Source: a virus
Strand: one strand, 5' to 3'
IMG/VR virus record: IMGVR_UViG_3300035670_011119
Location: 1-64,000 of that record
DNA: 64,000 nt
Shown piece after piece: positions 3 to 42,054 of the stretch; positions within the stretch are counted from its first letter, which is position 1; the number at the start of each line of letters is the position of its first letter. Under the pieces are notes generated by a model. The model was not told where the DNA came from. It saw nothing but the letters and a program-made list of their open reading frames with translations, and searched no databases. The translations under genes and the position numbers were made by a program.

Positions 3-3000
3 AAACAACAAAGATCTCTTATTGATAAAAATAATGCGGCTATTAAAGCTGCAAAAGAATCTAGACTACAATCCGCAAACCAGAGTGGTCGTGGTAGCAT
101 TGGTATAGCAACCAATCCATTCAATACAAGTCAACGTCAAGATTATAGTATTTTGTATCATGAATTAACTCATCAACTTTTTAATAGTCTTAGAACTAAA
201 AACGCTCAATCGTTTGAAGCATACAAGGCAAAAGTTGCTAGTTTATTTGATGGAAATAATGATGATGTGGCCGATGCTTTTGATGCTTTGGTAGGAAATA
301 CTGGATATAATAGTGCTGATGTTGCTTATGGAAGAAGTTATAAACTTAGTGGACTAAGTAGTTTAATGATAGGCTCCGCTAAAAAAGAGTCGTTCGAAAA
401 ATATGTTAATAGTGATCCAGAATATGTTCCAGAATTAAGAAAAGCTTGGGCCGAAGCCACTTCCACCACAAATGCTAAAGCTTTCAAGCCACTGAATCCT
501 AGGGTTAATGATATTTTATTAAGAGGTAAAATAAGTCAAGATGTTATAGATAAATATGAAGATAATGGTAAAGAAGAGTTTTTAACAACACTAGTACAAA
601 AATTACCATTATTAGATGAAAATCTAAGCGGAGTTTTGGATAGTACTCTAAATGAGTTGTTGGGAGGTGCTGGAATAAGTAGACAAAAATTTGCTCTCGG
701 TGGATTAGCAGATTCTACAGAAGCTATGTCAGGATTAATGCAAGGATTATACGGAAATAGAAGCCAACAAACAGATAAAAAAGAAAAAGACTTTGGAAAA
801 ATAAGCGTTACAGAAGATGGAAACATGCTTAGTGTTGGATATCTTAAAAATGAGAGTAGATCAGGATATGTACAAGCAATGAAATATAAAGATAATCTAT
901 GGTATGTTGGATTATCAAAAGCTACTAAAGGATATGGACCAAGATTGTATGATGTGGCTATGGAGGCTGTTAGTGAAAAAGGAGGTATGCTAACTTCTGA
1001 CAGAAGCATGGTTAGCTCTGATGCTCAAAAGGTTTGGGCTTATTATTTTAAGAATAGAGGAGATGTTAAAAAAACACCATTAGAACCAGAAAATTGGACT
1101 AAAAACCAATCATTGATAGATCCGAAACTTTATGGAAGAAAAGAAACATGGCCACCACCAACAGATCCTGCTTGGATACTACAGAGTGGTTATAGTAAGA
1201 GTCCCACTTTACTTAATGATCCAGAACAAGTAAAAAGAAATAATAATAGAGCACAAAAACCCGTTGATTCTAGAAGTATGGCTCTATCATATTTTCAAAG
1301 AGCCGATGGCGGACCAATAAGCAGTTTTGCTGTGGGTGGCTTAGTACCTAAAATTCCAGAGATGGCATATTTTGACGAATTATTAGCTTATAAAAATTTA
1401 GAATTACCTTTTCCAACCCCTTTTGATAGTGTGACAAATAGATACAAGGATTTAATCAAAATCCAACATCCAGATAAAGGAGGAAATTCAGAAATATTTA
1501 AAAAGATACAACAAAGCTATATGACTTTGCTGAAGATAGAACAAATGAAGGAAGTTACTAAACTTTTAGCTAAAATTATGGATGATGGTATGGGATTAAG
1601 AACGTCTATGATCCGAGGCAAAAAAGGAACCGAACTTCAAAAATCTCACGAAGAGTGGATGGAACAATATAAAATAATGAGTCGGCCATACGAAGATTTA
1701 GCATCGAAATATTTTGGTAGTGTTGAAGGTTCTATTAAATTTGCAGAAATTCTTACTGAAAGACAAGTAGCATCCTTGACTGATAAAGACATAGCGGCAT
1801 TGAAACACCCAATATATCAGGACTATATGAAAAAGAACAATCCTGATCGTTTGGAAAACATAAATAATCAAATAAAAGAAATGGAAAAATCTAAAAGATT
1901 TCCTAAAGAGTTACCATTAAAAGCTGGTGGATATATTCGATCTTTTGCTGGAGGAGGAACTATACCAGCATTAGTAAGCAATGGTGAAGCTTATGTTCCT
2001 CCCAAACTTGCTAAACGTATTGGTTATGGAACATTAAATCGTATGAATCAAGCCGATAAAAATGGAATGGGGCGATTTAGTGATGGCGGAATTAGCGTAT
2101 TTAAGGGTCCGGGAAGTGGCACTAGTGATAGTATACCAACAAGTTTACCAGTAGGAAGTTTTATAATAAGAGAAAAGGCTACTAAAGCTTTGGGATTAAA
2201 TAAGGGTGGGAGCGTAGGCATTCAAAAATTTCAAGACGGAGGCGCCCCAACAAATAACGGAGATCTATATTTTACCACCTTGTCAGCTGCTCAAATACAA
2301 GATATAGTTGGTAAAGAATCATCTAGAACAGGAATAGATGCTGAATCTTTGGACTTATTAACAAGATATGCTCAAGATGCAGGCATGAGCATAGAAGATT
2401 TTTCTAGCGGACTAATAAGAGCTAGAGATACTGCAATTGAATCTGCTTTGGCACAAGGACAAAGTTTTAAAGAAGCAGCATTAGCTGGACAACAAGCTGC
2501 TATTGCGATGGCTAATATTCCAAACATGCAAGTTACAGGAGAGAATCCGTTAGATGTACTAAGATCATTAACGGCATCGTCCACTAGAGTACAAGCAAAT
2601 GTTGAACAGCGTAGAGAAATATTAAGTGATCCTGAAATTATTGCTGCTATTAATGAAACTAATGATCTAATGAGCAAACTAACTCCTGCTGAACAATTTT
2701 CTGTTCAAACAGGAACTGGGCCAATGACCCCAGAAATGGAAGCGGCAGCAGCATCTAGAAGAAGACAAAAAAATATTGTTGGATATAAAATAGAAGAAAG
2801 ACAAACTCAAGCCAATCAACCAGGATTTGTACCACCAACTATACAACAACCAACTAATTTAATGGATATTGATGGTATTAATAATCAATTGAAGGAAGCT
2901 CAAAATAATGCTACATTATATGCGTCATCTCTTAGAGATCAAGCTAATGCTATTCGCGCACAACAAGAAATTACCCCAGACCCAATAATCTTTGCTGCAT

Positions 3001-6000
3001 TAGAAGCTAAAGCACAAGCTCTAGAAGCAAAAGCAACAGCAGCAGACGACGCTTATAAGGATTTGGCAGATAGTACACAAGCTATTGTATTGTCGTTGAA
3101 TACAGACTATCAGATAGCTATAGATGATATGAGAACGAAAGCTAAAGATGTTGCAGACGCAACGACAAAAGTTAAGGAAGCTATGGTAACAAGAGCTAAA
3201 GAAATAGCTGCCGAAAATCCAGAATTAACAGCTGAAGAAATTGGACAAAAAATTAGCACAGAAAAAACAGGCATAGTAGCAGAAGCTAGGGCTCAACAAA
3301 CAGAAGCCGAAACAAAATTTGGTATGGCCCAAAGTAGAGTCGATACACTAGCGGGCAAAGCTGGTGCTGGAGCAGATATTTTATCTCAAGAAAAAGCTGC
3401 TGCCGACAAGGCTAGAGCAGAAGCACAAGCTAAAGCTGAAGCAGATGCTCAATTAGAAGCTCGTAAACAACAAGCGCGTGATCTTGGAGCGAAACGTGCG
3501 GCTATTGCTGTACCAGAAAAAAGAGAGTACGAAACAGAACAAGAATTTAACGATAGACGACAAAAGGCAACAGAAAGATTTACCAGACAATCAGCACAAG
3601 AATTGGGTCTTAGTAAAACTAGATTTGTTAGCTCAAGACAAAAAAAAGCTATAGAAGAAGAAGAAGCTAAAAAAACTAAAGTTGAGAGAGAAAAAACAGA
3701 TGTTGCTATTCAAAGCACAGATACTAAAGCTACGTTATTACTAGTACAAGCTATTAATGCAAATACTGTAGCACAAACTGGTTCGGCAGATTCTGTGAAA
3801 TCATTAACCGAACAAACAAATGGTCTCATTGCTACAAATGAACAACTAACTAATGCAAAAAATGCTGATATTGAACAGGCTAATGCTTCTCCTGACGATA
3901 GCGATCTATTTAAAGACACCCGCAGAGAAATTCCATTCTTAGACAAGCTTGAAACATTAGGATCAGCAGTTGGTGATTTTGCTAATAATTTTGCAGCATC
4001 TACTACTGATATTGATAGTAATATTACTAAATTTGGTAGTGTTCTTCAGGGCGGTGCTTCTAGATTAGAATCTGGTATCAAAAAACTAGCTGATGGTATC
4101 AGAAATGCTAATACGGCATTTGCAGATACTAAAATAGGAAAGTTTGCGGATTCATTTAGTCAATATGGCACAGCAATAGGTACTGGTGTAACAAGCGTAC
4201 TACAATATATGGCCGACCAATCTAATGGTTATGAAACACTAACAGGATCAATACTACAAGCAGGATCAACAATAGCTAGTACAGCAACCATATTCGGTAC
4301 TTTTGGTGCTCAATTCGGCCCACTTGGTGGATTATTAGGGGCCGTCGGTGGAGCAGCGGCGGGAGCGGTACAAAGTATAAGAGATTATGTAGAAGCTCAG
4401 TATAAAGCTGCGGCAGAATTATTAGAAATACAACGAACAGATGCTTTAGAAAAAGCATCATCAGATGTTGCTGTATTTTTAGATAATATCAATCCGTCTG
4501 CGAAAGATCTTGAAAGCGCTCTTAGTAATTTGGCTCAGGTAGTAAATATTGAAAAAGAACAAATGTCTACCAACACAGAAGCTAGTAGATATAAATCAAC
4601 TTATGGTGGATTATTTGTTGGTAAAAAAACAGAAGCTGAAATAAGAAAAGCAGATGCTGCTGCCGCTGCGGCTAATACCGGAGGAGCACAAGTATCCAAA
4701 CAATTAATATCTGGTATGGCAAATACCGGAATGAAAATGGAAGATATAGAAAAAAGTTTAGGAGCTGATGTTTTTGGTAATCTTAAATTACAAATAGCAG
4801 AAGCTGATGCTATATTTGTTAGAGAAGCAAGAGATGCCGCCGATCAACTTAAAGCTGGTAAGATTAGCGGTGAACAATACGTTACTGCTGTAGATAATGC
4901 TAAAAATGCAGCATTTGAACGAGCCACATCCGAATTACGAGTTAAAGAAGCTAATGAAGAATATAGACAAAGTGTTACGGATGTTAGAAAAAGATTAGAA
5001 AGTCAAGGAACAGGATTTCTTAAAGAATTAATAACATCTACTCCTAAACAAAGAACAGAAATGAGAAAGGACTTTGAATCTGCTGGAGGATTATTGGAAG
5101 GCGATTTTACAAAAAGTCGTGCTCAACAAGAAGAAGCCGCACAAAAAGCTTTTAGAGAAACTAGCGGTACGGTAAAAGAAAAGAGAGAAGCAGCCGACGC
5201 TGCAAGAGCTCAGGTTAGACAAAGAGTTCTTGAAAGAGGAGAACAAATTTTAAGTTTTGGAGATCAAAGCGATCCTAAGATTAGAGAGGCCAGGGCTCAA
5301 CTATATCAAAAAAGTCTTGAAGATCAAGGAATAGATCCTAATGATGGTATGGCAAAATTGGTACTTGATAGTTTAAGAGCGCCAGATCCTGAAAGAGCAG
5401 CTCAAGAAAATCTTAAAAAGGCCACAGAAGAAGCAGCAAAACAACTAGCTATTCAAACAGCGGCAACAAATGCGAATACTGACGCACTGAAAGGAGGAAA
5501 AATTACAACAGAGTATGCAACAACAGGTGGTGTTGCTGATGCCCAGACCGCTACGAATGCTGTATCTAATGAAGGAATGAGTAATTTGGGATGGAATGCA
5601 GCAAAGGTGGTTGGCGCAGGCGCTGTTACGTATGGTTTTGATAGAGCTACTGGGGGAGGAATAAGACGCAGCGTAAAGAAAGGTATTCAAAATTTTCGTA
5701 AAGATCCAAATACACCCGACACGGAATCAGTAGCGGCCGAACAACCAAAGCCTCAAAAAAGAAGTGGTAGTGAAGCTACCGATACTCCTAAACCAGCTGT
5801 CGCTACCGACCAAACACCCCGAACACCACCTCGTCGTCAACCAAATGCGCCTAAAGATAATGTTCGACAACCGCCGCGACGAGGCCAACCATCTGCTGAA
5901 GCGCCCCAACCCCAAGCAGCAGTACCAGGACGCAAAGCTAAAGTAAGCGCTAGTGCTAAAAAAGGAGTTGGCGGTTTGGTCGCGGCTGGTGTTGGTCTTT

Positions 6001-9000
6001 TTGCTATAGGTAGTAGTTATTTTGGCGGAGGCGCTCAACCAGAATCAGACTCTGGAACACAGCAACCAACAGAAGAAGACCAACCAATTATTGAAAGTTC
6101 TCCAGAAATTATTCAATTGTTATCTGCTATAGAAGCTAATACTAGAGAATGCTGCGCTGGAGGTGGGACTGGCGGAACCGCTAGTGGAGAAAGAGTAACA
6201 ACTAATACTGGTAGTATGGAAAATATTCCTACAACTAAAGAACCGGCAGTTGCTGTTGAGAAAAAAACCGATGCAATAGCTAAAGAAATAACAACTGCTG
6301 CTAGTGAACCAATAACAATGATGGAATCATTAAGTGATGAATTTGCAGCTTTTAGTAGTAGGGGCTATCAAAACGCTGAAGTAACAAATGCAAGTCTTAA
6401 TACGCTGGGATCTTTTGCTACCGATATAATGGGTACAACAGATGTTGCAAGAACTATGAGGAGTGGTGGAATAGTAGATACTACTGGTCAAAATAAATTT
6501 CTATCTAAACCAATGGGAGTGACGGGATACACCACAAGAGGAATGGGTGCTTATGGAGCAGTACAATCCGCTAGAGCTTTTGCAGAAACTGGGGCTATTG
6601 ATGATGCTTTGGGTATCGTTGCTGGGGCTGGTAATACTGCTGGTGGTAGATATGCTGGATTAGTTGGAGATACGGCTAGTGCTGCAAGAAACGCATATAG
6701 AACATTGAGTGGAAAATCTATACAAGAAGGAACATTGGCTCAAGATACGCTTGGCTTAGTTGCAGATGTAGGACAGATTGGCCTACAAGCTTCTCCAGAA
6801 ATTGCTAAATATGGACCACAAGCATTACAAACAGCTAAAAACTTTGTACCAAAATCAACACCAGCTCCGTCAACACCCGTGGCGGCCATAGACGATGCTG
6901 CAAAAGCAAAAGAAATATTCCGTTTACAAAATGCTGGTTTTACATCCGATGAGATTGCTAAGGTAGTCGGTGGCGGTATAGATGATACGGCCGCAGCAGC
7001 AGGGAAATTTGGTGGTTTATTAAGGATACCTGGTCTAGGAACAGCCGCTAGACTTGGCGGCGGAGTTCTTGGCGGTTTGGGTGTTGCTATGGGAGGAGTA
7101 AGCGGATACTCGGCGGATACCGAAGCAACAGGTAGAAATAAATACGTAAATACAGCTTTGGGTGCTTTATCTGGTACGGGAACGACAATGGGCGATGTTG
7201 GACAACAATCTACTATCGGAGGATTATTGGGGGTTGAAAAGGGCAGTGAGACTGATCAGATGATCGGTAATGCGTCTAGCCTTGCTGCGGGTACACTAGG
7301 AGTTGCTGGCGCTATTGGTGGTGCCGCAGCACTAGGTGTGGGTGCCGCAGCAGCAGCTCCTGCTCTTGCTATTGGCGCTACTGTAGCAGGAGGCGCGCTT
7401 TTAACGCAAGAATCTATAGGATTATATAACGATAGAAGTGTTCTAGCAGAAAAAGAAAAACAAACAGCAGCTATGGAAGAAGCTTCACGAAGAACTAAAT
7501 TAGTTAAAAATGACCAAGGAGAATATGTAAGACAAGCTAAGACAGCACAAGACTTTGATTTTGGATATAATTTTACTGCTGATGAAAGTAATGCAGTAAG
7601 AGCATATGCTAAAAATCAAGCAGAATCCAATAGAGCAAAAGAATTAGCTTCCAAAACAAGTCTAACTCAAGATGAAACATCTGAATTAGCAAATATTAAA
7701 AAATCTTTTGGTATGGAAGAAGGTGCATCTAATCAGGATATTTTAGCAGAAGCTCAAAGAAGATCGGACACAGCAGCTAGTGACCTAGCAGCTAAAGCTA
7801 GAACAAGAGCCACAACAACAAAAGTTGGATGGTTTGGGGATAGATATGATCAACTTGATGAGAAAAAACAAACAGAAAATATGCAAAAATATTTATCTGC
7901 TGCTAAACAGTATCAACCTGAAACATTTGTGCAACCAGAAGAAATGCCGGCTCCTCAAACCGCTGTTGCTACCAAAGAACCGACATGGTTTCAAGAAGAA
8001 CAAAAACAAATGCTAACCATTTCTGCACAAGCACCCCAAGGAACAGCTGCTGTTCAAGCTACAAGCGCAGCATTACAGCAACAACAAGCTGTTCCGGTTC
8101 CCGAAACCATAACAGGTCAGGGAGGAAAAGTAATTCCGGTTGTTGGAGATGCTGTTTCCAATGCCGCTATAACAAGAGGTAGTTCTTTTATGGCACAAGT
8201 TGAGGCTATGGACGCTGCTGCGGCAAAAAAAGAAACAGTTATAACCCCAACGATTCAAACAGAACAACAACCATCGGTATCTGTTCCAGCTCCCGAAGGC
8301 ACAGCTGCTGTTCAAGCTACAGCAGCAAGTCTAGAACAAACTACACAAGAAAAATTAAATAATGTTCCAACTTATGGTCTTAGTGAAAAAGAACAAAACC
8401 TAGTAAAAAGTCAAGATGTTTTGAAAAAAGCAAAAGAAAAAGCTTTGTCTTTGGGAACTTCAGAAGGTAATATGGAAGCAACTAGATTAGATGCAGAAAT
8501 CCAATCTAAGAGCAAAGAACTATTAGCATCACGACAAGCCGGTGCTGTTGGAACTGGCGGAGATGTTATGAAAGATGTTAATCTTTATAGACAAGCAAGA
8601 GAACAAGCCATGGCTAGCGGATTACCCACCGCAACACCACAAGGAGCAACACAACCATCTGTAGTATCAGCAAGCGCAATTGATGCTGCTATGGCAACCC
8701 AATTACAGCCCGCACCAGCAGAAACAGATAATTGGTTCAAAAATGCTCAAGCTGATTTGACTCGTATTCAAGCATCTCCTGATGCTAATATTACAGGAAA
8801 TGCTCAACCCGCTAATGGTGTAATTAATACTAGCACAACTCAGCAGCAACCAACAGCCGCAGGAATGTCTCAATTATTTGACACAGCAGCTATTGGAAAT
8901 ACTTTGCAAACTGTATTTGGTCAATTTGTTTCGGATTTACAAAATATTCAACTACCAAAAATACCGGATATGGTTACTATGGAAGGCAAACATACTGTTG

Positions 9001-9128
9001 AGGTTATTATTAATGGGGCGGATGTATTAAAATCATTAGAACCAATGCTACAAGATCTAATAAAAACGAAATTAACCGAATTTAATAATAAACTTAATAG
9101 TGCCACAGAGGGTGGATTTGGAGCATAG
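3..9128 (+). CDS. Giant tape-measure-like polyvalent virion protein, 5'-truncated by the window edge (>3040 aa), with HExxH peptidase, GNAT-like and J-domain inserts
   Basis: The frame has no stop from nt 3 (KQQRSLIDK...ILYHELTHQLF), so the TTG at 153 is not the true start. It contains tape-measure signature motifs (FAGGG-IPALVSNGEAYV; FSDGG..FKGPGSGTSDSIP), long Ala/Gln/Glu-rich coiled-coil stretches and Gly-rich hydrophobic segments, and it lies upstream of tail genes. Confidence 0.8.
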   Translation, partial: KQQRSLIDKNNAAIKAAKESRLQSANQSGRGSIGIATNPFNTSQRQDYSILYHELTHQLFNSLRTKNAQSFEAYKAKVASLFDGNNDDVADAFDALVGNTGYNSADVAYGRSYKLSGLSSLMIGSAKKESFEKYVNSDPEYVPELRKAWAEATSTTNAKAFKPLNPRVNDILLRGKISQDVIDKYEDNGKEEFLTTLVQKLPLLDENLSGVLDSTLNELLGGAGISRQKFALGGLADSTEAMSGLMQGLYGNRSQQTDKKEKDFGKISVTEDGNMLSVGYLKNESRSGYVQAMKYKDNLWYVGLSKATKGYGPRLYDVAMEAVSEKGGMLTSDRSMVSSDAQKVWAYYFKNRGDVKKTPLEPENWTKNQSLIDPKLYGRKETWPPPTDPAWILQSGYSKSPTLLNDPEQVKRNNNRAQKPVDSRSMALSYFQRADGGPISSFAVGGLVPKIPEMAYFDELLAYKNLELPFPTPFDSVTNRYKDLIKIQHPDKGGNSEIFKKIQQSYMTLLKIEQMKEVTKLLAKIMDDGMGLRTSMIRGKKGTELQKSHEEWMEQYKIMSRPYEDLASKYFGSVEGSIKFAEILTERQVASLTDKDIAALKHPIYQDYMKKNNPDRLENINNQIKEMEKSKRFPKELPLKAGGYIRSFAGGGTIPALVSNGEAYVPPKLAKRIGYGTLNRMNQADKNGMGRFSDGGISVFKGPGSGTSDSIPTSLPVGSFIIREKATKALGLNKGGSVGIQKFQDGGAPTNNGDLYFTTLSAAQIQDIVGKESSRTGIDAESLDLLTRYAQDAGMSIEDFSSGLIRARDTAIESALAQGQSFKEAALAGQQAAIAMANIPNMQVTGENPLDVLRSLTASSTRVQANVEQRREILSDPEIIAAINETNDLMSKLTPAEQFSVQTGTGPMTPEMEAAAASRRRQKNIVGYKIEERQTQANQPGFVPPTIQQPTNLMDIDGINNQLKEAQNNATLYASSLRDQANAIRAQQEITPDPIIFAALEAKAQALEAKATAADDAYKDLADSTQAIVLSLNTDYQIAIDDMRTKAKDVADATTKVKEAMVTRAKEIAAENPELTAEEIGQKISTEKTGIVAEARAQQTEAETKFGMAQSRVDTLAGKAGAGADILSQEKAAADKARAEAQAKAEADAQLEARKQQARDLGAKRAAIAVPEKREYETEQEFNDRRQKATERFTRQSAQELGLSKTRFVSSRQKKAIEEEEAKKTKVEREKTDVAIQSTDTKATLLLVQAINANTVAQTGSADSVKSLTEQTNGLIATNEQLTNAKNADIEQANASPDDSDLFKDTRREIPFLDKLETLGSAVGDFANNFAASTTDIDSNITKFGSVLQGGASRLESGIKKLADGIRNANTAFADTKIGKFADSFSQYGTAIGTGVTSVLQYMADQSNGYETLTGSILQAGSTIASTATIFGTFGAQFGPLGGLLGAVGGAAAGAVQSIRDYVEAQYKAAAELLEIQRTDALEKASSDVAVFLDNINPSAKDLESALSNLAQVVNIEKEQMSTNTEASRYKSTYGGLFVGKKTEAEIRKADAAAAAANTGGAQVSKQLISGMANTGMKMEDIEKSLGADVFGNLKLQIAEADAIFVREARDAADQLKAGKISGEQYVTAVDNAKNAAFERATSELRVKEANEEYRQSVTDVRKRLESQGTGFLKELITSTPKQRTEMRKDFESAGGLLEGDFTKSRAQQEEAAQKAFRETSGTVKEKREAADAARAQVRQRVLERGEQILSFGDQSDPKIREARAQLYQKSLEDQGIDPNDGMAKLVLDSLRAPDPERAAQENLKKATEEAAKQLAIQTAATNANTDALKGGKITTEYATTGGVADAQTATNAVSNEGMSNLGWNAAKVVGAGAVTYGFDRATGGGIRRSVKKGIQNFRKDPNTPDTESVAAEQPKPQKRSGSEATDTPKPAVATDQTPRTPPRRQPNAPKDNVRQPPRRGQPSAEAPQPQAAVPGRKAKVSASAKKGVGGLVAAGVGLFAIGSSYFGGGAQPESDSGTQQPTEEDQPIIESSPEIIQLLSAIEANTRECCAGGGTGGTASGERVTTNTGSMENIPTTKEPAVAVEKKTDAIAKEITTAASEPITMMESLSDEFAAFSSRGYQNAEVTNASLNTLGSFATDIMGTTDVARTMRSGGIVDTTGQNKFLSKPMGVTGYTTRGMGAYGAVQSARAFAETGAIDDALGIVAGAGNTAGGRYAGLVGDTASAARNAYRTLSGKSIQEGTLAQDTLGLVADVGQIGLQASPEIAKYGPQALQTAKNFVPKSTPAPSTPVAAIDDAAKAKEIFRLQNAGFTSDEIAKVVGGGIDDTAAAAGKFGGLLRIPGLGTAARLGGGVLGGLGVAMGGVSGYSADTEATGRNKYVNTALGALSGTGTTMGDVGQQSTIGGLLGVEKGSETDQMIGNASSLAAGTLGVAGAIGGAAALGVGAAAAAPALAIGATVAGGALLTQESIGLYNDRSVLAEKEKQTAAMEEASRRTKLVKNDQGEYVRQAKTAQDFDFGYNFTADESNAVRAYAKNQAESNRAKELASKTSLTQDETSELANIKKSFGMEEGASNQDILAEAQRRSDTAASDLAAKARTRATTTKVGWFGDRYDQLDEKKQTENMQKYLSAAKQYQPETFVQPEEMPAPQTAVATKEPTWFQEEQKQMLTISAQAPQGTAAVQATSAALQQQQAVPVPETITGQGGKVIPVVGDAVSNAAITRGSSFMAQVEAMDAAAAKKETVITPTIQTEQQPSVSVPAPEGTAAVQATAASLEQTTQEKLNNVPTYGLSEKEQNLVKSQDVLKKAKEKALSLGTSEGNMEATRLDAEIQSKSKELLASRQAGAVGTGGDVMKDVNLYRQAREQAMASGLPTATPQGATQPSVVSASAIDAAMATQLQPAPAETDNWFKNAQADLTRIQASPDANITGNAQPANGVINTSTTQQQPTAAGMSQLFDTAAIGNTLQTVFGQFVSDLQNIQLPKIPDMVTMEGKHTVEVIINGADVLKSLEPMLQDLIKTKLTEFNNKLNSATEGGFGA
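690..2243 (+). repeat. Eight copies of a short peptide motif (F/R/L)-x-x-GG in the tape-measure-like protein
   Basis: FALGG 690-704, RADGG 1299-1313, FAVGG 1326-1340, LKAGG 1917-1931, FAGGG 1944-1958, FSDGG 2076-2090, LNKGG 2196-2210, FQDGG 2229-2243. Six of them form three tandem pairs (xxxGG-x4-6-FxxGG). Confidence 0.8.
8043..8321 (+). repeat. 21-bp exact direct repeat (acagctgctgttcaagctaca; TAAVQAT) within the tape-measure C-terminal region
   Basis: Copies at 8043-8063 and 8301-8321, in the peptides APQGTAAVQATSAA and APEGTAAVQATAAS. Confidence 0.85.
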
Positions 9129-9160
9129 ATATTTATTAATTAAAATAAGGAATAATTTAT

Positions 9161-12100
9161 ATGACAACATATGTTACTGATTATAGCATAAGTGGTAGCA
9201 CAATTATTGATTCTACCGGTAATTTTAATGCTCTAACTATTAATAATACTGGTATTAGTTTAAGTGGTCATATTCATACCTTTGCTGATATATCTAATTT
9301 TAGTAATGGTTTGAGCGGATTATCGAATTTGGGCAATATTCCTAGTGGAGTTTATATATATACTACAGGATTAAATCAATTCGGAACAGGAGTACTAACA
9401 TCTTTTGCACGAACACTTTTGGATGATTCTGGAGTAGCAGACGCTAGAACAACTTTAGGATTAAATGCGCTATCAACAGTTAGCGGCGTTTTGGTTCTTG
9501 GTTCGGATGTTGCTCAAGATATTATTCTTTCTAATATTCCTGGTTCTGGTACAATATTTAATAATCTGAAAAAAGATATTGATTTTTACGTCCAAGGAAC
9601 TGGTAACAATAGCGCATTTTATTATGATGCTTCATTGGGCAGATTAGGTATAAATACAACATCACCAGATACCTTATTGCATATTGTTAGTGATTGCACA
9701 TTAGACGGCTTGAAAATAGAAAGTACCACAAATTGTTCAACCGGCGTACATTTGCTGTTACAACATAATCCTGGAACATCACCAGTTACTGGTAGTTTCC
9801 CCGCTACCATATCATTGGCCGGTAGAGATGATAATGCTAATATTATTTATTATGCACAATTAAGATCAAAAGCAGTTTATACAGATGGTGATGGTGCTAA
9901 TGGTACTCAGGGCGAATTATTGGCTTATATAGATCATGATGGCACGGGCAATTTGGTGTTAAAACTAGCTAATTCTGGAACATATATCGGCCCCCATAAT
10001 ACTGTAAATGGTACGGCTAATTTTTACAACCTATTAGGTAGTGGCAATAATATTAATGGTAATAGTTTTATTGTGGTGGGTAATGCTAATACCCTGGATC
10101 CTGCAACAAATAATATAATGGTTGGTTCGTCTAATGACTCATTCGGATCGTCTAATCAAATAGTTGGTAGACTAGTAGAAGTTAATGGTACTGGCAATAT
10201 TGTTAATGGATATAATATTTATCAAAATGGAAATAGTAATTATTTATATGCTACTAATATTTTATATACTGGAAATAATAATATTATTGCTGGCAATTTA
10301 ACTAATGGTAGTGGACTAAGCAATATTTTACTTGGTAATAATATTTATAATTCTGGAAATGTTAATATATTAATTGGCTCAGGATTAAATAATATTGGCA
10401 ACTCTTTAATGGTTGTTGGCCAAAACTTGTACCTTAGAGGAAATAGTGGAGTATTATTGGGGAATAATAGTGCTGTTACTGGAAATAGTAATATTTTAAT
10501 AGGTAATAATTTAAATGTTGTATCAACAGGATTATTTATTTGTGGAGATAATATAACCGTAACAAATGTTGCTGATTCGTTAATACTAGAAAAAAATGTT
10601 AGTGTTAGTAGTTCTTCTGGTATAGTAATTGTTGGACGCGGTAATGATATTACTTCAAATAATAATACATTAGGTATTTATGGATATAAAAATACTACAC
10701 GCAATACTATAAGAAATTCTAATATATTAGGAGATTCTAATAGTCTTAGTAATGCGTCAGGATCATTGGTGCTTGGCACAATGAATATTGCTAGTGGTAC
10801 TCTTAATAATGATATTTTAATTGGTAAACAAAATTATCTTATTAATGCTAGTAATAATAATATTTTTATCGGCAATATTAATAATCAGTCTGGTTTAAGA
10901 TTAAATAGTGACGGATCGATTACAGGAACACTAAGTAATAATGGATCAAGATTTGTAAATACTGTTGCGCTCGGTAATCAGAATGTTTTTCAATCTTCTG
11001 GTAATCTACAAATTGCAATTGGTAATAAAAATGATATCGATGGTTTATATAGTATGGTAATTGGTAGTATAAATACTCTGCGTAATGGAGACTATAATAT
11101 TTTATTAGGCAAATCAAATTATGTTGGTGGGCCTAGTAATATAGTATTAGCTAATGATGGTAGAGTATTTGGGAATAATAATATTGTGTTGTCTCCTGCT
11201 GATAGTGTTAGAGTTTTTGGAGAAGATACTATTTCTGTAGGATCGAACAACGGACAACAATCTAATGGTATTGTTGTAGGATATAACAATAATTTATATG
11301 GCGATAATATTAATATTTATGGTAGTAATAATACTGCCGGAGACCAAAAGTATTTGTATACTGCTACAATAAGTAGTAATGGATTTGCTAGTTCACAAAT
11401 AAATTTTAATAGTAATATTACGAGCGATATTAAAGTTGGCGATAATATTTTAGTATATGTGTATAATCCTACTCCCACAGATATTAATGATACTTATGTA
11501 TTTGCTAGAACCGTTATTAGTAGCATTTGGGACGGCTCCACTACGCAAATAATTCTTAGTAGTAATATTACTTTACAAACCAATAATCCACAAAGTAATC
11601 CGAATAATTTTAACGATGCTTTCTCAGCAGCTGTTCCAACACTAGCATCAGGATATATAACTAAACAAAATTTAGGATCTAATAACTATATTTATGGTGA
11701 TAATAATACCATATTAGGTACTGGTAATACTGTTTTGGGTTTTGATAATAGCTTATCATCATATACTACTGGCGCAATAATATTAGGTCATGGATTATCT
11801 CATAATTATGGTAACAACTATATGGCCATTGGTCCAGCAGATGGTACCAAAATTGTTATTGGTCCAAAATTAGTACTTAACACTGGACTAGCTACCACAC
11901 AAATGTATGTTGTTAATACTAGTAATCAGTCTTATGTATATTTTAATAATACTAATAGTAGAATTGGTCTTGGCGCTAGTAATAATGCTCCAAGATCTTT
12001 ATTAGATGTTAGTGGTACTATCACAGCATCAGCACTAAGAATCGGATTGTCTGGTAATAATGGAGATCTTTTAAGTACAGATAGTGATGGTAATATATCT

Positions 12101-35382: not shown

Positions 35383-36287
35383 ATTATGAAAGCCTTAGAA
35401 AGAGAATTGTTTAATATTGTATTTATTTCTTTGCTAGTTTCTTCGAAGCTACCGACGATTTCATGATCGATTGGCACATCAGAATAAACAGGATTAGTAC
35501 GCAATAGTTCTGCTAAATTACCAATAGAATTAATAATATACAAATTGGGTATGTTTTGATACTGACTCAAAGAATTATTCGTATCAATAATAACGGCAAC
35601 ACATCCGCAAGCAATGGCCCATAGGGCATTTACTATAGATGCTGGATCTAGTTCGATGACTATCTTATAATTATTTAATATATTGCAAGCGTCTTTAGTT
35701 GTTGATGGAATCTTACTAAGATTTATAGTCTTAATTCCTATTGTATTTTCCAAATAATTATCATCTATTTTTTTATTATAGCAAAATAGAGCTATTTCTT
35801 TTCTATTCCCTATATCGTTATTTATTTGTAATGTTGGTGGTATCCCATATTTGATTTGTTTACTTACGATTTTATTACAGTTAAATTTGGACATGGCGCT
35901 TGGAAAATATAATAAAGTATCATTTGGTCTAATAGTATTATTACAGATTAAAAATACATCTTCTTTTTTAAGATCTAAAATTCTACTATCGTGTGATACG
36001 AAGATAGAATTAAGATGCATTGCTGTAGCACTATTATTTTTTATGCTTAGTAGGGGATTATTAGTTAAAAATATAGAGTATGATTTTAAGCATAAAGACT
36101 GTTCATCTAGTCCGATGATAGGAGAATCTTCATTAAAAAATTCTTTAGTATTTGGATCTATAGTATACAGCGATAATCCGAGATCCATCATCATCACATC
36201 AAACAAACTAAAGTGTGGTTGATATAAAATATTGTCGTGATTCTGAATAGATTGCAGAATATTACTTAATTGGAATCCTGGATACAT
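35379..36287 (-). CDS. Hypothetical protein, degenerate GT-B glycosyltransferase-like
   Basis: C-terminal LNNYKIVI......NALWAIACGCVAVI resembles the GT4 E..A.G motif with the acidic residue replaced. Confidence 0.45.
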   Translation of the reverse strand: MYPGFQLSNILQSIQNHDNILYQPHFSLFDVMMMDLGLSLYTIDPNTKEFFNEDSPIIGLDEQSLCLKSYSIFLTNNPLLSIKNNSATAMHLNSIFVSHDSRILDLKKEDVFLICNNTIRPNDTLLYFPSAMSKFNCNKIVSKQIKYGIPPTLQINNDIGNRKEIALFCYNKKIDDNYLENTIGIKTINLSKIPSTTKDACNILNNYKIVIELDPASIVNALWAIACGCVAVIIDTNNSLSQYQNIPNLYIINSIGNLAELLRTNPVYSDVPIDHEIVGSFEETSKEINTILNNSLSKAFII

Positions 36288-37390
36288 AATTTTTTGCCTA
36301 TTGTAGAATAACTAAATGATTCTTTTTGTGATATACCTAGATTTGATTTTTCATCCCAAGCTTTTTTATCTTTCTTGTAAAGACCGTATGCCTTTTGCAT
36401 TTGTTTGATAAGATCGTATATATCTATTTTATACCAATGCTGGTTAGCATTATAATAGTCTGTGTTTCCGGCTATCGGATGATGAGGCATAATAACCGGA
36501 GTTTTATGACTATTGACTAAAAATCCATTATCATTATTTATGAAGTCTTTCATGCCAGAATTTTTGTTCACAATCGGATTTTTTCCTAGACACAAAGCCT
36601 CTGCTGCTGGACGACAAAACGCCTCTCCATATGAAGGCATAACAAAACAATCACAGCTAGAATGAATTCTTAAAATATCGTCATAAGATATTCTTTGTGT
36701 CATCCAAACTTCATTTTTAAATGGTTTGTTTAGATGTAGAGATTGTTTTATTTCGTTAGCAAAAGTAGTAAGCTCTTTTATATCTCCATTAGTTTTTATT
36801 ACCAAGGATACAGGATCGCCTAGATCAAAAGCTAGATTAAATGCTATTATAAGATCTTGTAAATTTTTTCTAAAATTATTCTCACATATTGTATAAAACC
36901 TAAAATGATTTGCGATAGCGGGATTGAGTATAGCCCTAGGATATATCTTGAGTATATCTATATCTAAAGCTTCACTAATAGCCCTTATAGTTTTTGTACA
37001 TCCACTAGACTGTAAAGATTCTTTTTCTAGACTTGACGGTACCCAAATCTCATCCATTCTGTTAATATTTGATATAACCTTAGTTTTACTAAAATTATTT
37101 ATTTCTAATGTAAATAAACCAATATTTTTACCATATCTACTATCATAGTAGAAATATTCTGGTAAAGTATTTTGTATTACATAATGATATTTATCAGCTT
37201 TATTATTTTCATATGATATAATTTGTTCATCATTAAAAGATGCATCAGTATTACCAGGAGCCAAATATATTGGGCGTGTGGTTAAATTAATATTAGGCAA
37301 TGAAGATATTGCTCGTATATAGTCTCTAGCGGCTAATCCCCAGCCGTCGTGCTGTCTATATGGTCCAACAAATAATATATTTGTACTCAT
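36266..37390 (-). CDS. Glycosyltransferase family 4 (GT-B)
   Basis: GWGLAARDY, DEIWVPS, RKNLQDLI.AF, CDCFVMPSYGEAFCRPAAEALCLGK. Confidence 0.85.
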   Translation of the reverse strand: MSTNILFVGPYRQHDGWGLAARDYIRAISSLPNINLTTRPIYLAPGNTDASFNDEQIISYENNKADKYHYVIQNTLPEYFYYDSRYGKNIGLFTLEINNFSKTKVISNINRMDEIWVPSSLEKESLQSSGCTKTIRAISEALDIDILKIYPRAILNPAIANHFRFYTICENNFRKNLQDLIIAFNLAFDLGDPVSLVIKTNGDIKELTTFANEIKQSLHLNKPFKNEVWMTQRISYDDILRIHSSCDCFVMPSYGEAFCRPAAEALCLGKNPIVNKNSGMKDFINNDNGFLVNSHKTPVIMPHHPIAGNTDYYNANQHWYKIDIYDLIKQMQKAYGLYKKDKKAWDEKSNLGISQKESFSYSTIGKKLCIQDSN

Positions 37391-39060
37391 GATACTGATC
37401 CTAAATTAGCTTTAAGATGAGCATATTTAATATAATCTTCACTACTTAATTTATCTTTATTCACAATGGCTTGTTGAGCAAAATTATGATTAGATATAAT
37501 GGTTTGGATAGTGTCTATTACATTTTGTCTGGTAAACGGTTGAATTTGCATTCCGTTTTGTGTATATCCATACTCTAGATCTCTAATCATCTGTAAAGGA
37601 ATAATACTATGAATGATGGGATGGTTTGGTAAAAATTGTTTCATAATATTATATACAAAATTATAATTAGTCATTCCTTTTGTAATCTCCATTATGTCGG
37701 GAGGTAATGGCTGAAAAGGATTCATAGGTTGGTCCCATTGACCTTGTAATCCAACAAGTTTAACATTATCAAAATATTTTTCCCACTTTTTTGCTATGTC
37801 ATCCCAATTATAATATAGTTCTGTTAATTTTCTAGTTTCCTGTCTTTTTTGTAGTCTTAATATTGGTGGTAGCTTATAAAGATTTTCTACTATTTCTATA
37901 AAATGATTATTATCAGGATAAACTCTAATAGCTTGTGTTTCTAGTTCCTTAAAGGCTCTTTGTACTCTAACTGGATATCCATTTAGTTTATGAACCACAT
38001 CGTTCATAGCACTATAATCAACAGAGGCCAGAGGTATACCACATGCCCCAGCTTCAACTTGAGGCATACCAAAACCTTCGCATATAGCATACTGTACATA
38101 AAGATCGAATGTATTTATAATATGTGCTAGCCTATGTGAATCTATACCATTATTAACACTAGGTAATTGCATAGACTTTTGTCCACACCTAGGACATCCA
38201 GCAACAACATGACTAAATAGCATAGAGCATATGTGTCCACAATGACGACACGCATATGTAAAAAATACCTTGTTAGATATATTATATTCTTTTAGTAATT
38301 GCGGAATATCCCAGCCAGCATCAGGGTAGCTAGTATGAATATATAAATATGTTTTTTTATACAGCTCGGGATTCTTTTCTTGTAGAAGCTTTAGAGCATC
38401 AAAAAGATCAGGAATTAATTTTCTCTTTTGGTTCCTAACAACGGTGCCAATAATAAAACTGTCTTCTGGAAGACCGAGGGCTATCCTAATATCTCTTTGC
38501 TCATTAATCATTGGATGAAAACATGCGAGATCAACACCAGGAGATGCTGTATCTATATAATTAGCATGATTATTACTTTGCTGTAACAATACATCTCTAC
38601 CAAAATCAGAATATGTAAATAAAGCATCTGCTGATATATAAGTGTCTATCCAGGTTTCTTGTTGTGGCGACGAGTCTATTGTTGGCATTACAACCCAATG
38701 ATAGTATGGTCGTAATGGAGAGTATTGTTGATATGAATTCATCCAATAGTCGCGTATATCAAATACTATATCTGGTTTAAAGTCTAGTAATACTCTATCA
38801 AATCTCCATTTTCCAAATTGATTTTCTGTACTATTATTATATTCTCTGGCTCTTGGATCATTGTCTGCTGGGGCATTTGCATACAACATCCAAGGAATAT
38901 TAATATCTCTTGGATCATTAACCTTAGCATAAGAAGCAAACTCTGCTACTTCATATTTATTAGTAGCATATAGTCTCTTTAATAACTCTCTACTATAGCC
39001 AGAAAATCCAGAGCTAAGATAACTAGCTTCTGAGCACATTAGTAATCTTAATTTTTTCAT
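37387..39060 (-). CDS. Glycosyltransferase family 4 with an inserted Zn-finger
   Basis: Likely start ATG 39060 after AGGA. Motifs SSGFS.Y, RNQKRK, FDLYVQYAICEGFGMPQVEAGACGIP, and an insert CRHC...CPRC. Confidence 0.85.
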   Translation of the reverse strand: MKKLRLLMCSEASYLSSGFSGYSRELLKRLYATNKYEVAEFASYAKVNDPRDINIPWMLYANAPADNDPRAREYNNSTENQFGKWRFDRVLLDFKPDIVFDIRDYWMNSYQQYSPLRPYYHWVVMPTIDSSPQQETWIDTYISADALFTYSDFGRDVLLQQSNNHANYIDTASPGVDLACFHPMINEQRDIRIALGLPEDSFIIGTVVRNQKRKLIPDLFDALKLLQEKNPELYKKTYLYIHTSYPDAGWDIPQLLKEYNISNKVFFTYACRHCGHICSMLFSHVVAGCPRCGQKSMQLPSVNNGIDSHRLAHIINTFDLYVQYAICEGFGMPQVEAGACGIPLASVDYSAMNDVVHKLNGYPVRVQRAFKELETQAIRVYPDNNHFIEIVENLYKLPPILRLQKRQETRKLTELYYNWDDIAKKWEKYFDNVKLVGLQGQWDQPMNPFQPLPPDIMEITKGMTNYNFVYNIMKQFLPNHPIIHSIIPLQMIRDLEYGYTQNGMQIQPFTRQNVIDTIQTIISNHNFAQQAIVNKDKLSSEDYIKYAHLKANLGSVS

Positions 39061-39083
39061 TTTTAATCCTAGAACTACCCAAA

Positions 39084-39113
39084 AAGACACAAGCCCATAT
39101 GGGCTTGTGTCTT
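39084..39113 (-). terminator. Perfect 30-bp palindrome; probable intrinsic terminator downstream of ssb
   Basis: AAGACACAAGCCCATATGGGCTTGTGTCTT is its own reverse complement. On the - strand it lies 13 nt after the ssb stop and ends in a 5-T run. Confidence 0.75.
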
Positions 39114-39546: not shown

Positions 39547-39574
39547 ATTATACGTCCAGGCTTTGTTTTGTCAA
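39547..39574 (-). promoter_or_regulatory. Consensus sigma70-type promoter for ssb
   Basis: On the - strand, TTGACA (39574-39569) - 16 nt - TATAAT (39552-39547); the -35 overlaps the stop codon of the dnaE C-terminal half. Confidence 0.8.
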
Positions 39575-41178
39575 GTGGTAGGTAAAAAGATCTTTTCTAC
39601 TATGATTCCATCTTTAGTATTAGACTTTTTCCCTTTGATAATAATAATATTGCCTTCGAATAAAACGTGTCGAAATTGTTTGTATTGTTCAGCAAAACAA
39701 ACCACAGAATCTAAACAGCCCGTATTATCTACTACAGATAGAAATGCCATATCTTGACCTTTGCTTTTGCCACTTTTAGTCTTTACTACATGTATTCTAT
39801 CAATTTCAGCCGCTAATAGTATATTAGTAATACCGATATTATTTTTTATATCTCTGCAAGTAGCATTTGTCATAGTAATATCATACATATCAATTTTTGA
39901 ACATGTAATTGGACAACCTAGCAATTCATTTTCCGTATCAGAAATCCATTCGGCACTATCTTCTAAACTAAATGGAGGATGTAGCATTGTGTACATTATT
40001 TCTTTGATAGTTGAATTTCTATTTTTAGTAATTTTACTATTATTTAGTAGATTTTCTAACGCTTTGTATAAATCTTGATTAATATTTTGTCTAAGTAATT
40101 CTAATTCTCTTTTAGTTAGTTGACTAACTGTAGACAAATCGAATAACATAGTATTTCTTGATCTGCCAAAAATATCTAACGCTCCAGAACCTATTAGAGC
40201 CTTAGCGGCGATACTATTAATTTTTAGTAATACATCTATCAAAAAAGCATACCATCCATTCTTATTATATTCTATTGTTACAGATGATACTATCTTGATT
40301 AGTTTATCAAAAACAGATTTACCAACGCCCTTAATATCTGTTAATCCAAAATATATAGTATTATTATCTAAACAAAAGAATTCATTTAGCAGTCTAATGT
40401 CTGGTGGCTTAACAGAAATATCCATTTCGTTTGCATTTTGAATTAACTCTTTTATTTCTTGCTGAGGATCAATTTTATCTTTAGCAAATCTAAGATATGA
40501 AGCAAAAAAGATTTTAGGAAAATGGGCTTTTGTATATGCTGATAAATATGCATTAATAGCATAAGATACGCTATGACTCTTATTAAACGAATATCTTTGA
40601 CTTTTTTCGATCCAACTAAAAATTTCTTCTGCTTGATCCTCATTAAGAATTTTTGTAGTCTTAGATCCTTCTAAAAATTTTAATTTAACCTTTGCCATTT
40701 CTTCCGGTTTTTTCTTGCCAATTGCTTTTCTTAACAAGTCAGCTTCTTGTAGATTAAATCCTGCTATAACCCTAGTAATGTCCATAGCCTGTTCTTGATA
40801 AACCATCTCCCCATATGTTGGTTTTAATATAGGCTCTAAAGCAGTATGAAAATAGTCAACAGCTTCCTGACCATTTTTTTTGTCTATGTAGTGATTACTA
40901 ACGCTTTTACCATCCCTCATAGCCTCTAGACATCCTGGCCTAACTATACTAATTAGAGCAGATAATTGCTCTATATTTTCTGGTTTAAGTTTTTTAGCCA
41001 TAGTACGTCCGAGTCTGCTTTCCAACTGAAAACAGCCCTTAGTATTTCCGGACGAAATAAGATCCCAGGTTTTGTCACAATCAAGAGATATATGCTCGAT
41101 AGTAGCATCAAAACCAATAGAATTATTATCAGAATCGATAGGAAATTTACATCCACAATCAAATGTAAAATATTTCAT
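39571..41178 (-). CDS. dnaE: DNA polymerase III alpha, C-terminal half (fingers, HhH, OB fold)
   Basis: ISLDCDKTW.LI..GNTKGCFQLES, LISIVRPG, YQEQ.M, ADLLRKAIGKK, YSFNKSHSVSY, PPDI, FGL..IKGVG, MAFL.V.D.TG. Confidence 0.9.
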   Translation of the reverse strand: MKYFTFDCGCKFPIDSDNNSIGFDATIEHISLDCDKTWDLISSGNTKGCFQLESRLGRTMAKKLKPENIEQLSALISIVRPGCLEAMRDGKSVSNHYIDKKNGQEAVDYFHTALEPILKPTYGEMVYQEQAMDITRVIAGFNLQEADLLRKAIGKKKPEEMAKVKLKFLEGSKTTKILNEDQAEEIFSWIEKSQRYSFNKSHSVSYAINAYLSAYTKAHFPKIFFASYLRFAKDKIDPQQEIKELIQNANEMDISVKPPDIRLLNEFFCLDNNTIYFGLTDIKGVGKSVFDKLIKIVSSVTIEYNKNGWYAFLIDVLLKINSIAAKALIGSGALDIFGRSRNTMLFDLSTVSQLTKRELELLRQNINQDLYKALENLLNNSKITKNRNSTIKEIMYTMLHPPFSLEDSAEWISDTENELLGCPITCSKIDMYDITMTNATCRDIKNNIGITNILLAAEIDRIHVVKTKSGKSKGQDMAFLSVVDNTGCLDSVVCFAEQYKQFRHVLFEGNIIIIKGKKSNTKDGIIVEKIFLPTT

Positions 41179-41876
41179 ACTGTAGTTTTACCAAAAGAGT
41201 CCTTAAAAAGAATTTTACGAGATAATTTACGATGTAATTTCATAAATCTGATTAAAATTTCTGCACTATCTTTAACATCTTTAATCGCATCATGTGCGCC
41301 GTCTTTAGAAATACCCAAATATTCTCTTAAAGAATCTAATGAATAGCTGGATAGGTCTTGATTATTCTCGAACCATAAAAATACAATATTCATTATATCC
41401 AGAACATCTCGCATATAAAAGATATTGCTACGATTTTCTTTATTTAGATTATTATATTTTTTACTTAATCTATCTACTATGATCAAATCAAATCTATGAA
41501 TATTATAGCCAGCAGCAATAGGAGCAGTAAATTGGCTCTTTTTACTTCCTGATCTACAGTGATACTTCGATAAATATTCGGTAAATAAATTCCAAGATTG
41601 TTTTTGCGATGGATACTCCTTCCATTCTGCCAAAACTTGTTCTTTGGAAGAACCTTTAACTTTAGCATGAAAATCTAATATATCACCTTCGTATATATGG
41701 TTAGGATTGTTTTCTAATACTTCTGGTTTAAAATTTATATTAAATTCAGAATCAGGAATAATAGATAATTGTAATGGATCAACCATAACCGCAGCTATTT
41801 GTACAGGACTGCAAGATAGAGGGTCCGACCCATCTGTTTCAAAATCAAATACACAAATTTTGTTATAATTAATCAT
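41175..41876 (-). CDS. DEDDh 3'-5' exonuclease (DnaQ/epsilon-like)
   Basis: ExoI VFDFETDG, ExoII AGYNIHRFD, ExoIII HDAIKDV; ATGA overlap with the dnaE C-half. Confidence 0.85.
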   Translation of the reverse strand: MINYNKICVFDFETDGSDPLSCSPVQIAAVMVDPLQLSIIPDSEFNINFKPEVLENNPNHIYEGDILDFHAKVKGSSKEQVLAEWKEYPSQKQSWNLFTEYLSKYHCRSGSKKSQFTAPIAAGYNIHRFDLIIVDRLSKKYNNLNKENRSNIFYMRDVLDIMNIVFLWFENNQDLSSYSLDSLREYLGISKDGAHDAIKDVKDSAEILIRFMKLHRKLSRKILFKDSFGKTTV

Positions 41877-42054
41877 TAACTTCTACTTGTTGTACGGGAG
41901 TGATAAACTGTTTAACTTCTGGATGATTTACTTGCGCAGCATTAAGTGCGGTGCAACAACTAACCCTAATAGTTTCTATCTTAGTATAATCTATGCCCTG
42001 AAACTTAAAAGTACTACCCACAGCTAACTCATGAAACGGTACAAGTTTTGACAT
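41869..42054 (-). CDS. Small hypothetical protein (61 aa) inside the split dnaE locus
   Basis: GGAG RBS 6 nt before ATG 42054 (MSKLVPFHELAVGSTF...RVSCC...); overlaps both neighbours. Confidence 0.65.
   Translation of the reverse strand: MSKLVPFHELAVGSTFKFQGIDYTKIETIRVSCCTALNAAQVNHPEVKQFITPVQQVEVND

Follow-up and report, generated by a model that had tools for sequence, protein, structure and literature searches.

The window analysed here, 64,000 nucleotides (nt) in length, is the first 64 kb of one 75,597-bp contig, the IMG/VR virus record IMGVR_UViG_3300035670_011119. Its plus strand begins with a frame (nt 3..9128) that is open from the contig's first base and encodes 3,041 amino acids (aa), and the original prediction had read this frame as a tape measure protein (TMP) carrying three unrelated domains between FxxGG motifs. 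Comparison with relatives strongly supports the view that these motifs are the borders of exchangeable domain cassettes within a giant TMP.

A homologue search with residues 1-760 returned 176 proteins of 1,900-5,300 aa, most of which contain PF10145, and all relatives of the window's TMP were metagenomic sequences. The closest homologue, P0003 (locus L012), has 4,706 aa, is encoded on an 88,908-bp IMG/VR contig and aligns to window residues 1-234 and 640-3041 with 94% and 89% protein identity, respectively. Its N-terminal 630 aa scored 86.3 bits on PF10145 (cut-off 33.2, E 3e-24) and 90.1 bits on TIGR01760 (cut-off 28.8, E 1e-25) and matched the TMP family phrog_4211 at E 1.7e-22; with the first two scores above their cut-offs, the earlier assignment as a TMP held. 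This domain was scored on the relative, as the window's own copy falls upstream of the contig start, and PHROGs gave no match on the window's frame itself. The gene following the TMP gene is 96.8% identical in nt sequence between L012 and the window, indicating that the two phages belong to one species-level lineage. A circular continuation of the frame across the contig end was rejected, since terminal repeats are absent from the contig and the matching phase stays open for only 6 codons at its other end; the TMP gene is therefore cut by the contig start, and its 5' ~5 kb, or ~1,665 N-terminal residues, are missing from the window. By these alignments the frame represents the 3' part, encoding the distal two thirds, of a ~4,700-aa tail TMP from an uncultured aquatic phage lineage.

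The motif coordinates claimed earlier all proved exact. A motif scan located FALGG at aa 230 (nt 690), RADGG and FAVGG at aa 433 and 442 (nt 1299 and 1326), and LKAGG and FAGGG at aa 639 and 648 (nt 1917 and 1944), and FSDGG (nt 2076), LNKGG (nt 2196) and FQDGG (nt 2229) lie within the SNGE / GPGSGTSDSIP unit, all on the plus strand. In aa 1-750, the pattern [FY]xxGG was counted five times where composition predicts 0.44 (~11-fold), and none of 2,000 shuffles reached this count, whereas the 2,293-aa backbone contains one against 0.7 expected, which is the chance level. In 22 of 24 tabulated related giants, the region before the junction unit likewise holds 5-13 copies against 0.3-1.7 expected. 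The enrichment persists in two short 5'-truncated fragments (3 against 0.2-0.3), and the most distant giant, L048, has zero copies before the junction unit.

These joints divide the window protein into modules. Module A (nt 3..704) supplies the final 234 aa of an all-helical module whose full length in relatives is 427 aa (alignment A5), and it ends in LLGG-x7-FALGG (nt 690-704). Module B (nt 705..1340), a predicted GNAT-fold cassette with disordered ends, closes with a double joint RADGG-PISS-FAVGG (nt 1299-1340), and module C (nt 1341..1958), a probable J-domain cassette with a ~130-aa extension, closes with the double joint LKAGG-YIRS-FAGGG (nt 1917-1958). Junction module D (nt 1959..2246) comprises two half-units each bounded by FxxGG (…PALVSNGEAYVPP…FSDGG…GPGSGTSDSIP…FQDGG). 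The remainder (nt 2247..9128) is by composition an Ala/Thr/Gly/Gln-rich ruler backbone with hydrophobic Gly-zipper stretches. All five lie on the plus strand. When the first four pieces of the protein were compared by BLAST with 120 retrieved homologues, module A (residues 1-234) was present in 32, module B (residues 235-446) in 86, module C (residues 447-652) in none, and module D (residues 653-747) in 119 at 70-98% identity. The three unrelated modules proposed earlier thus behave as separate units.

Two close relatives display the exchange of cassettes directly. The window is 93.9% identical to L012 in nt sequence over nt 1-703 and 92-95% identical over nt 1953-9200, whereas nt 704-1952 are unrelated. 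The block that was replaced starts at the base following FALGG and stops at the bases following FAGGG; in its place L012 carries two unrelated cassettes of 227 and 162 aa. Compared with L019, the window is 92.6% identical over nt 1-1339 and identity resumes at nt 1943, with nt 1340-1942, the J cassette, absent from L019. In L019, F-A-x-G-G is encoded by 15 nt that can be aligned with the window's sequence on either side of the J cassette. At the protein level, L019 reads …RADGGPIDRFADGG followed by SVPALVSNGE, and the window reads …RADGGPISSFAVGG followed by LVPKIP, the J cassette, …LKAGGYIRSFAGGG and TIPALVSNGE. Other arrangements were found in L009-L011, where module A is joined directly to module D via LSVGGLISKLKGGG with no cassette between, and in P0123, where the J cassette is placed between module A and a different cassette and is bounded by FVNGG and LKFGGLISKFAKGG. 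On these alignments the window is best described as a mosaic, with an A and B side resembling L019, a module D and backbone resembling L012, and a J cassette from elsewhere.

A module map was built from 29 IMG/VR giants that were cut at [FY]xxGG and whose pieces were clustered. It contains 43 cassette clusters (23 singletons) in varying combinations and orders between a conserved N-terminal domain and module D. The original prediction had proposed to align homologues on the motifs and to see whether the cargo between them varies while motifs and backbone are conserved, and this is the pattern obtained; its suggestion of more cassettes upstream of the window also agrees with L012, which has about five before the window's first residue. 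Among the 120 homologues, 37-50% of the ends of high-scoring BLAST segments at ≥70% identity in the cargo region fell within 10 residues of a motif, compared with 10-13% of random positions (maximum 17-21% in 200 trials). Since all sequences are metagenomic and the joints are repeated, such a mosaic could in principle arise from chimeric contigs assembled across the joints. We regard this explanation as highly improbable: the stretch common to the joints is only 8-15 nt and not long enough to cause misassembly, the same architectures recur on independent contigs from different samples (L002/L003/L007; L005/L006; L009/L010/L011), and the reading frames are all open over 3,000-6,300 codons. The role of the joints as cassette borders is the strongest result of the comparison.

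We then considered what is conserved at the joint itself. Over 171 distinct joints the consensus context is GG-x3-[KR]-[FY]-[AS]-x-G-G-x-V. A second GG stands 5-6 residues upstream in 40% of these instances, and the doubled form is often xxGG-x4-7-FxxGG. The joint residues are invariant while their flanks vary (F208/G211/G212 in alignment A3, G211/G212 in A4 and G426/G427 in A5). At the DNA level, codon use at the joint equals the gene background, the commonest 15-mer occurs 5 times in 278 instances, and the J-cassette flanks share only TTTTGCTG and scattered G, a microhomology of ~8-15 nt. The first two observations rule out the joint as a DNA-level recombination signal. Because the codons are not conserved, selection acts on the peptide, and the joints are sites where recombinants stay functional. 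The earlier view of the GG motifs as cassette boundaries was therefore borne out, and their suggested role as recombination joints stands at the peptide level but fails as a DNA signal. The joint peptide must itself do something, be it to bend, to dock a partner or to be cut.

Module B provides the clearest view of a cassette and its ends. An AlphaFold2 (AF2) model built from a 13-row alignment (A4) had a core (~nt 786-1244) with a predicted local distance difference test score (pLDDT) of 80-96, whereas module residues 1-27 and 181-212, and with them the joint-bearing ends, scored below 50 and are predicted to be disordered. The top ten Foldseek matches in the PDB were all GNATs, including GCN5, AAC(6')-type and Bacteroides GNAT proteins, with a probability of 0.98-1.0 for nine of them and 0.69 at rank 8, at E values of only 0.008-0.04. 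All 50 of 50 VIA rows were GNAT or acyl-CoA N-acyltransferase structures (Z 5.7-7.4, 83-125 aligned residues, root mean square deviation 2.6-7.7), and the best viral matches in BFVD were ~200-aa proteins of uncultured phages, some labelled NAT_SF. A motif-A-like KGYGPRLYD precedes a helix in the module, and no Pfam family was matched at E ≤ 0.1. The GNAT-like label of the original prediction is thus backed by the modelled fold, and module B is predicted to be a GNAT-fold domain that is not a member of a named GNAT family. A large free-standing, unannotated family of ~200 aa from marine and freshwater metagenomes (P0155-P0269) is homologous to module B and has in common with it the core GWGP[ML]LYDVAMEWA…SDR..VS..A..VWDYY..R.DV. 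About 120 free-standing homologues of module B begin with Met, and none of the 120 ends in FxxGG, indicating that the joint is a feature of the chassis, not of the domain.

A second recognisable enzyme type was found in relatives of the window. Two cassette clusters match an ADP-ribosyltransferase (ART) exoenzyme family at 31.7 and 28.9 bits against a Pfam cut-off of 23.4, and a precomputed domain table listed PF03496, EF-hand and HTH_3 in other giants. ART cassettes (PF03496, above cut-off) stand between FxxGG joints at L025:4172-4705 and L034:7337-8623, and in the fragment P0154 an ART is followed by a double joint and a GNAT-fold module. Twenty-odd other cassettes had no family match.

Module C was supported as a J-domain with the HPD signature. 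The HPD lies at nt 1467-1475 within IQHPDKGG (aa 487-494, nt 1461-1484), and the J-domain covers ~nt 1389-1544. Module C alone matched the Pfam DnaJ family PF00226 at E 9e-5 and 22.9 bits, below the gathering cut-off of 27.8. A phmmer search of 1.84 billion representatives returned 26 short matches to its first ~75 residues (E 8e-6 to 1e-3), and the eight of these J-only matches that were tested all scored 33-72 bits on PF00226. The HPD J-domain named in the original prediction accordingly matches bona fide J-proteins even though it falls short of the Pfam cut-off. The same 1.84 billion representatives held one full-length relative of module C, the 5,991-aa giant P0123 at 64% identity.

The rarity of the J cassette, which suggests that it is dispensable, bears on a reading in which the chain is an uncut string of beads, the joints are hinges for packing or unfolding, and the cassettes serve tail assembly or envelope penetration and are not effectors. 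For example, the J-domain could recruit DnaK in the producing cell and keep a 500-kDa chain soluble. This reading is in line with the RNA polymerase fused to the TMP of phage P23-45, which is thought to be active while attached to the TMP pore (PMC10770324), and with the embedded TMP domains of TM4 and T5, which target the cell wall (PMC1796659, PMC12617516). It is at odds with the cytoplasmic cofactors required by GNAT and ART enzymes (acyl-CoA and NAD+) and with a same-species turnover of cassettes that resembles arms-race diversification and not a structural need. We consider it rather unlikely.

In 12 module A sequences of 43-96% identity (alignment A5), YHE[LM]THQLF, with HExxH at nt 159-173, and EDNGKEEFLTTL are invariant, as are several Asp/Glu residues downstream of HExxH, among which the third metal ligand could not be assigned. 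An AF2 model from this 12-row alignment was poor (pLDDT 58, and 42-63 around HExxH). With this low-confidence model Foldseek found no match in the PDB, and VIA matched only a helical hairpin (aa 115-224). A profile search of the PDB likewise gave no match, Pfam returned SprT-like in one of the 12 members at E 0.17 and otherwise nothing, and the ESM Atlas gave weak leads with no peptidase match. The HExxH noted earlier and the acidic residues are thus truly conserved, and they are all that the label of peptidase rests on; we retain it as a motif-level hypothesis.

In contrast to the cassettes, junction module D is conserved. In the window, a unit of the form FxxGG - PAxxxxGE… - FxxGG lies at nt 1944-2243, and the conserved order is TIPALVSNGEAYVPP…FSDGG…GPGSGTSDSIP…LNKGG…FQDGG. 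In L012 (6830-7050) and equivalents, a second junction half-unit (…FAKGGTVPGSGKGDKVPALLEPGEVVMSNRAV…YFKGG) stands right after the N-terminal TMP domain, so that the cargo bay is bracketed by junction units. A profile of module D weakly matched the solved TMPs of mycobacteriophage Douge (8zdo, E 0.15) and Pseudomonas phage JBD30 (8rk3, E 0.39) in the PDB, and no NCBIfam family corresponds to the junction unit. The JBD30 TMP contains FASGGHIKGPGTGTSDSIP, and residues 733-782 of lambda gpH read FATGG-FTGTGGKYEPAGIVHRGEFVFTKEATSRIGVGNLYRLMRG-YATGG. Lambda gpH, JBD30 gp46 and Douge gp16 therefore resemble the window in the unit FxxGG - P-A-x-[IV]-x-x-G-E - … - [FY]xxGG / GPGTGTSDSIP, but they carry it one to three times with no cargo between the copies, and the similarity is short and statistically weak: for gpH it consists of a BLAST segment of 25 residues (E 0.003, one pairwise comparison) and the FxxGG pattern on either side, and a hidden Markov model of the junction unit scored ~0 bits on gpH. 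By this comparison the joints appear to be reiterated edges of an ordinary TMP junction module that is carried one to three times elsewhere. The cassette region (aa 1-652, nt 3-1958) has no cysteine, and the 2,293-aa backbone has two, which are adjacent in ECCAGGG.

In a second reading, the protein is a true polyprotein that is cut at the FxxGG joints after assembly or on ejection, whether by its own HExxH module in cis or by a different protease, to free the GNAT, J-domain and ART units in the host as MARTX effectors are. The joints would suit this purpose, as they are short and disordered, are strongly conserved and place a basic residue ahead of the aromatic one, and their conservation lies on the peptide and not on the codons. 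Lambda gpH is cut to gpH* and gpHC in a Gly-rich region by a mechanism that is unexplained (PMC12617516), and the same source describes such cuts in the Gly-rich C-terminal region for both gpH and T5 pb2. The single FATGG…YATGG unit of gpH lies 20-40 residues downstream of its cut region, and processing by metallopeptidase domains has been proposed for polyvalent proteins (PMC5512222). However, the lambda cut is mapped only approximately, upstream of the unit and not at it, and the gpH similarity is as weak as described above. Moreover, with only 32 of the 120 homologues possessing it, the HExxH module cannot be the general protease, its fold is unverified, and cleavage in the present lineage is a hypothesis. 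We therefore view the polyprotein as doubtful, and cleavage of the chain at some or all joints, by whatever means, as possible although we lean against it.

Directly 3' of the TMP gene, four large open reading frames (ORFs) of 1,564, 687, 2,249 and 2,683 aa stand in a row (window 9161-30756, plus strand) and presumably encode tail-tip or fibre proteins; they had no sequence match in Pfam, PHROG or the PDB, apart from a weak trimeric-autotransporter-like stretch that is the sole match of the first. In L012, two overlapping ORFs immediately upstream of the TMP gene (3762-4049, 95 aa, and 4036-4926, 296 aa; overlap 4036-4049) occupy the usual place of frameshifted tail assembly chaperones, and neither matched a family. 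The rest of the contig is clearly that of a phage: besides a polymerase of DnaE type in two pieces, it encodes a DnaB-like helicase, a primase, a ribonucleotide reductase and glycosyltransferases. The DnaE-type DNA polymerase (phrog_405) is split into two ORFs at window 39571-43930 (minus strand) with small genes between them, the halves of 633 and 535 aa corresponding to profile positions 41-616 and 622-1076. A large sugar-modification set occupies window 36266-39090 and L001 956-5617 (both minus strand) and includes several glycosyltransferases (GT2, GT11, phrog_2170), a DegT-type aminotransferase and an NAD-dependent epimerase/dehydratase. Two L001 ORFs (10353-11282 and 5568-7820) that were considered as a papain-like GG-specific protease had no Pfam match. 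Megablast and tblastn of the region encoding aa 1-747 against 50,697 cultured-phage records gave no match, and module D had no relative in 185,579 reference genomes, hence no prophage or host clue.

Taking the above together, we propose that the TMP is a chassis whose cargo bay of autonomous domains is swapped at the joints and delivered pre-made to the host, a reading that we consider probable as a whole; its established parts are how the protein is built, where exactly its junctions lie, that its cargo varies, that cassettes are exchanged at the joints between co-circulating phages, and the identity of modules B and C as GNAT and J-domain. The cargo bay would lie between the N-terminal TMP domain and the ruler backbone, with the edges of the junction module reiterated, globular domains seated between them and each domain ending in a short, disordered joint of the form [KR]-[FY]-x-x-G-G. 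A recombination event landing in two joints would yield an in-frame, correctly folded protein, and since the joints are interchangeable at the peptide level, cassettes are acquired, dropped, exchanged and rearranged among related phages. TMPs exit the tail ahead of the DNA and build a trans-envelope conduit (PMC11445458, PMC13033339, PMC12617516), from which cargo delivery would follow: as the TMP exits ahead of the DNA, the cassettes would arrive pre-made. At the start of infection the GNAT and ART domains would modify host proteins by acetylation and ADP-ribosylation, the J-domain would engage host DnaK, and the cassettes might act tethered or be cut free.

Several points weigh against this proposal. 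In the wider family, the majority of BLAST breakpoints fall away from motifs; the enrichment at the joints is real but not absolute. Most cassettes have no recognisable function, and the window itself is without the N-terminal TMP domain. With a width of ~3.5 nm and three or six chains inside it (PMC13033339, PMC12617516), the tail lumen cannot accommodate three or six folded copies of 20-25 kDa domains (PMC13033339), which must therefore be stored unfolded, a mode of storage that is unproven. In this lineage the presence of the chain in the virion, the crossing of the membrane and the activity of the cargo are all hypothetical. As for size, the Douge TMP has 1,699 aa for a 269.6 nm tail, and by this ratio 4,706 residues would extrapolate to a tail of ~750 nm if all of them rule length.

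In a further scenario that we judge unlikely, FxxGG is a cleavage code and the injected polyprotein is ratcheted by DnaK and cut to free enzymes. The C-terminal backbone would form the envelope channel, through which the unfolded cargo bay would thread into the cytoplasm. The in-chain J-domain would recruit host DnaK to ratchet and refold the cargo, as mitochondrial import motors do, and cuts at each joint would release free GNAT, ART and other enzymes. If true, phages would have their own equivalent of the MARTX toxins, whose repertoire differs by reshuffling from one phage to another that is otherwise identical.

The proposed chassis with exchangeable cargo has partial precedents. Thermus phage P23-45 gp96 is a 5,002-aa TMP with a fused virion RNA polymerase, and its chain also has a metallopeptidase and transmembrane regions (PMC10770324). 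It is therefore a precedent for a giant TMP bearing a working enzyme that is delivered at infection (PMC10770324), but it has a single fixed N-terminal enzyme, no row of interchangeable cassettes and no reiterated FxxGG described, and the search of phage records with window aa 1-747 found no sequence similarity to P23-45. Polyvalent proteins combine 2-15 unrelated domains per injected polypeptide with extensive mosaicism (Iyer et al. 2017; PMC5512222). Zincin-like peptidases, GNATs and ARTs are their signature repertoire and processing by peptidase domains has been proposed, whereas their chassis is packaged in the head or delivered by conjugation, with no conserved inter-domain joint and no J-domain listed (PMC5512222); tape measure proteins have zero occurrences in that paper. 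With GNAT, J and HExxH modules, ART in relatives and 43 clusters, the giants have a polyvalent type of architecture, and we infer their delivery in the virion from the TMP chassis. The TMP of mycobacteriophage TM4 (PMC1796659) and T5 pb2 (PMC11445458, PMC12617516) also have functional domains inserted in the ruler that act at infection; these are one or two peptidoglycan-directed motifs, without cytoplasm-type enzymes, cassette arrays or shared joints. In lambda the likeness extends to position, as the unit stands just after the Gly-rich cut region of gpH, with the cut site not mapped to the motif.

Outside the tail, a similar organisation is known from bacterial toxins. MARTX and polymorphic toxins carry variable effector domains between conserved elements, recombine from strain to strain and have motifs that mark the swap point. 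They are, however, secreted by bacteria and have either a dedicated cysteine protease domain or pre-toxin motifs, and we know of no homology between them and the cassette TMPs. Phage and other viral J-domain proteins, such as Rki of phage RB43, also engage host Hsp70/DnaK through an HPD J-domain and are free early proteins. The J-domain described here differs in being a cassette inside a tail protein, with one other example among the 1.84 billion representatives. The novel elements are a J-domain carried as cargo, its rarity and its two positions, and the same-species pair, about 95% identical, with a clean replacement of two cassettes.

TMPs are usually seen as passive rulers or channel formers. 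In hundreds of uncultured aquatic phages the ruler would instead be a chassis for interchangeable enzymes, a natural and sequence-defined system for asking what phages deliver ahead of their DNA and how protein cargo survives in a 3.5-nm tube. The finding also raises whether the joint, common to the unexplained processing region of lambda gpH, is a cutting site. It points to ~40 compact domain families without a known function, which probably take part in early host takeover or counter host defences, and a domain followed by FxxGG may serve as a design rule for loading foreign cargo into phage tails.

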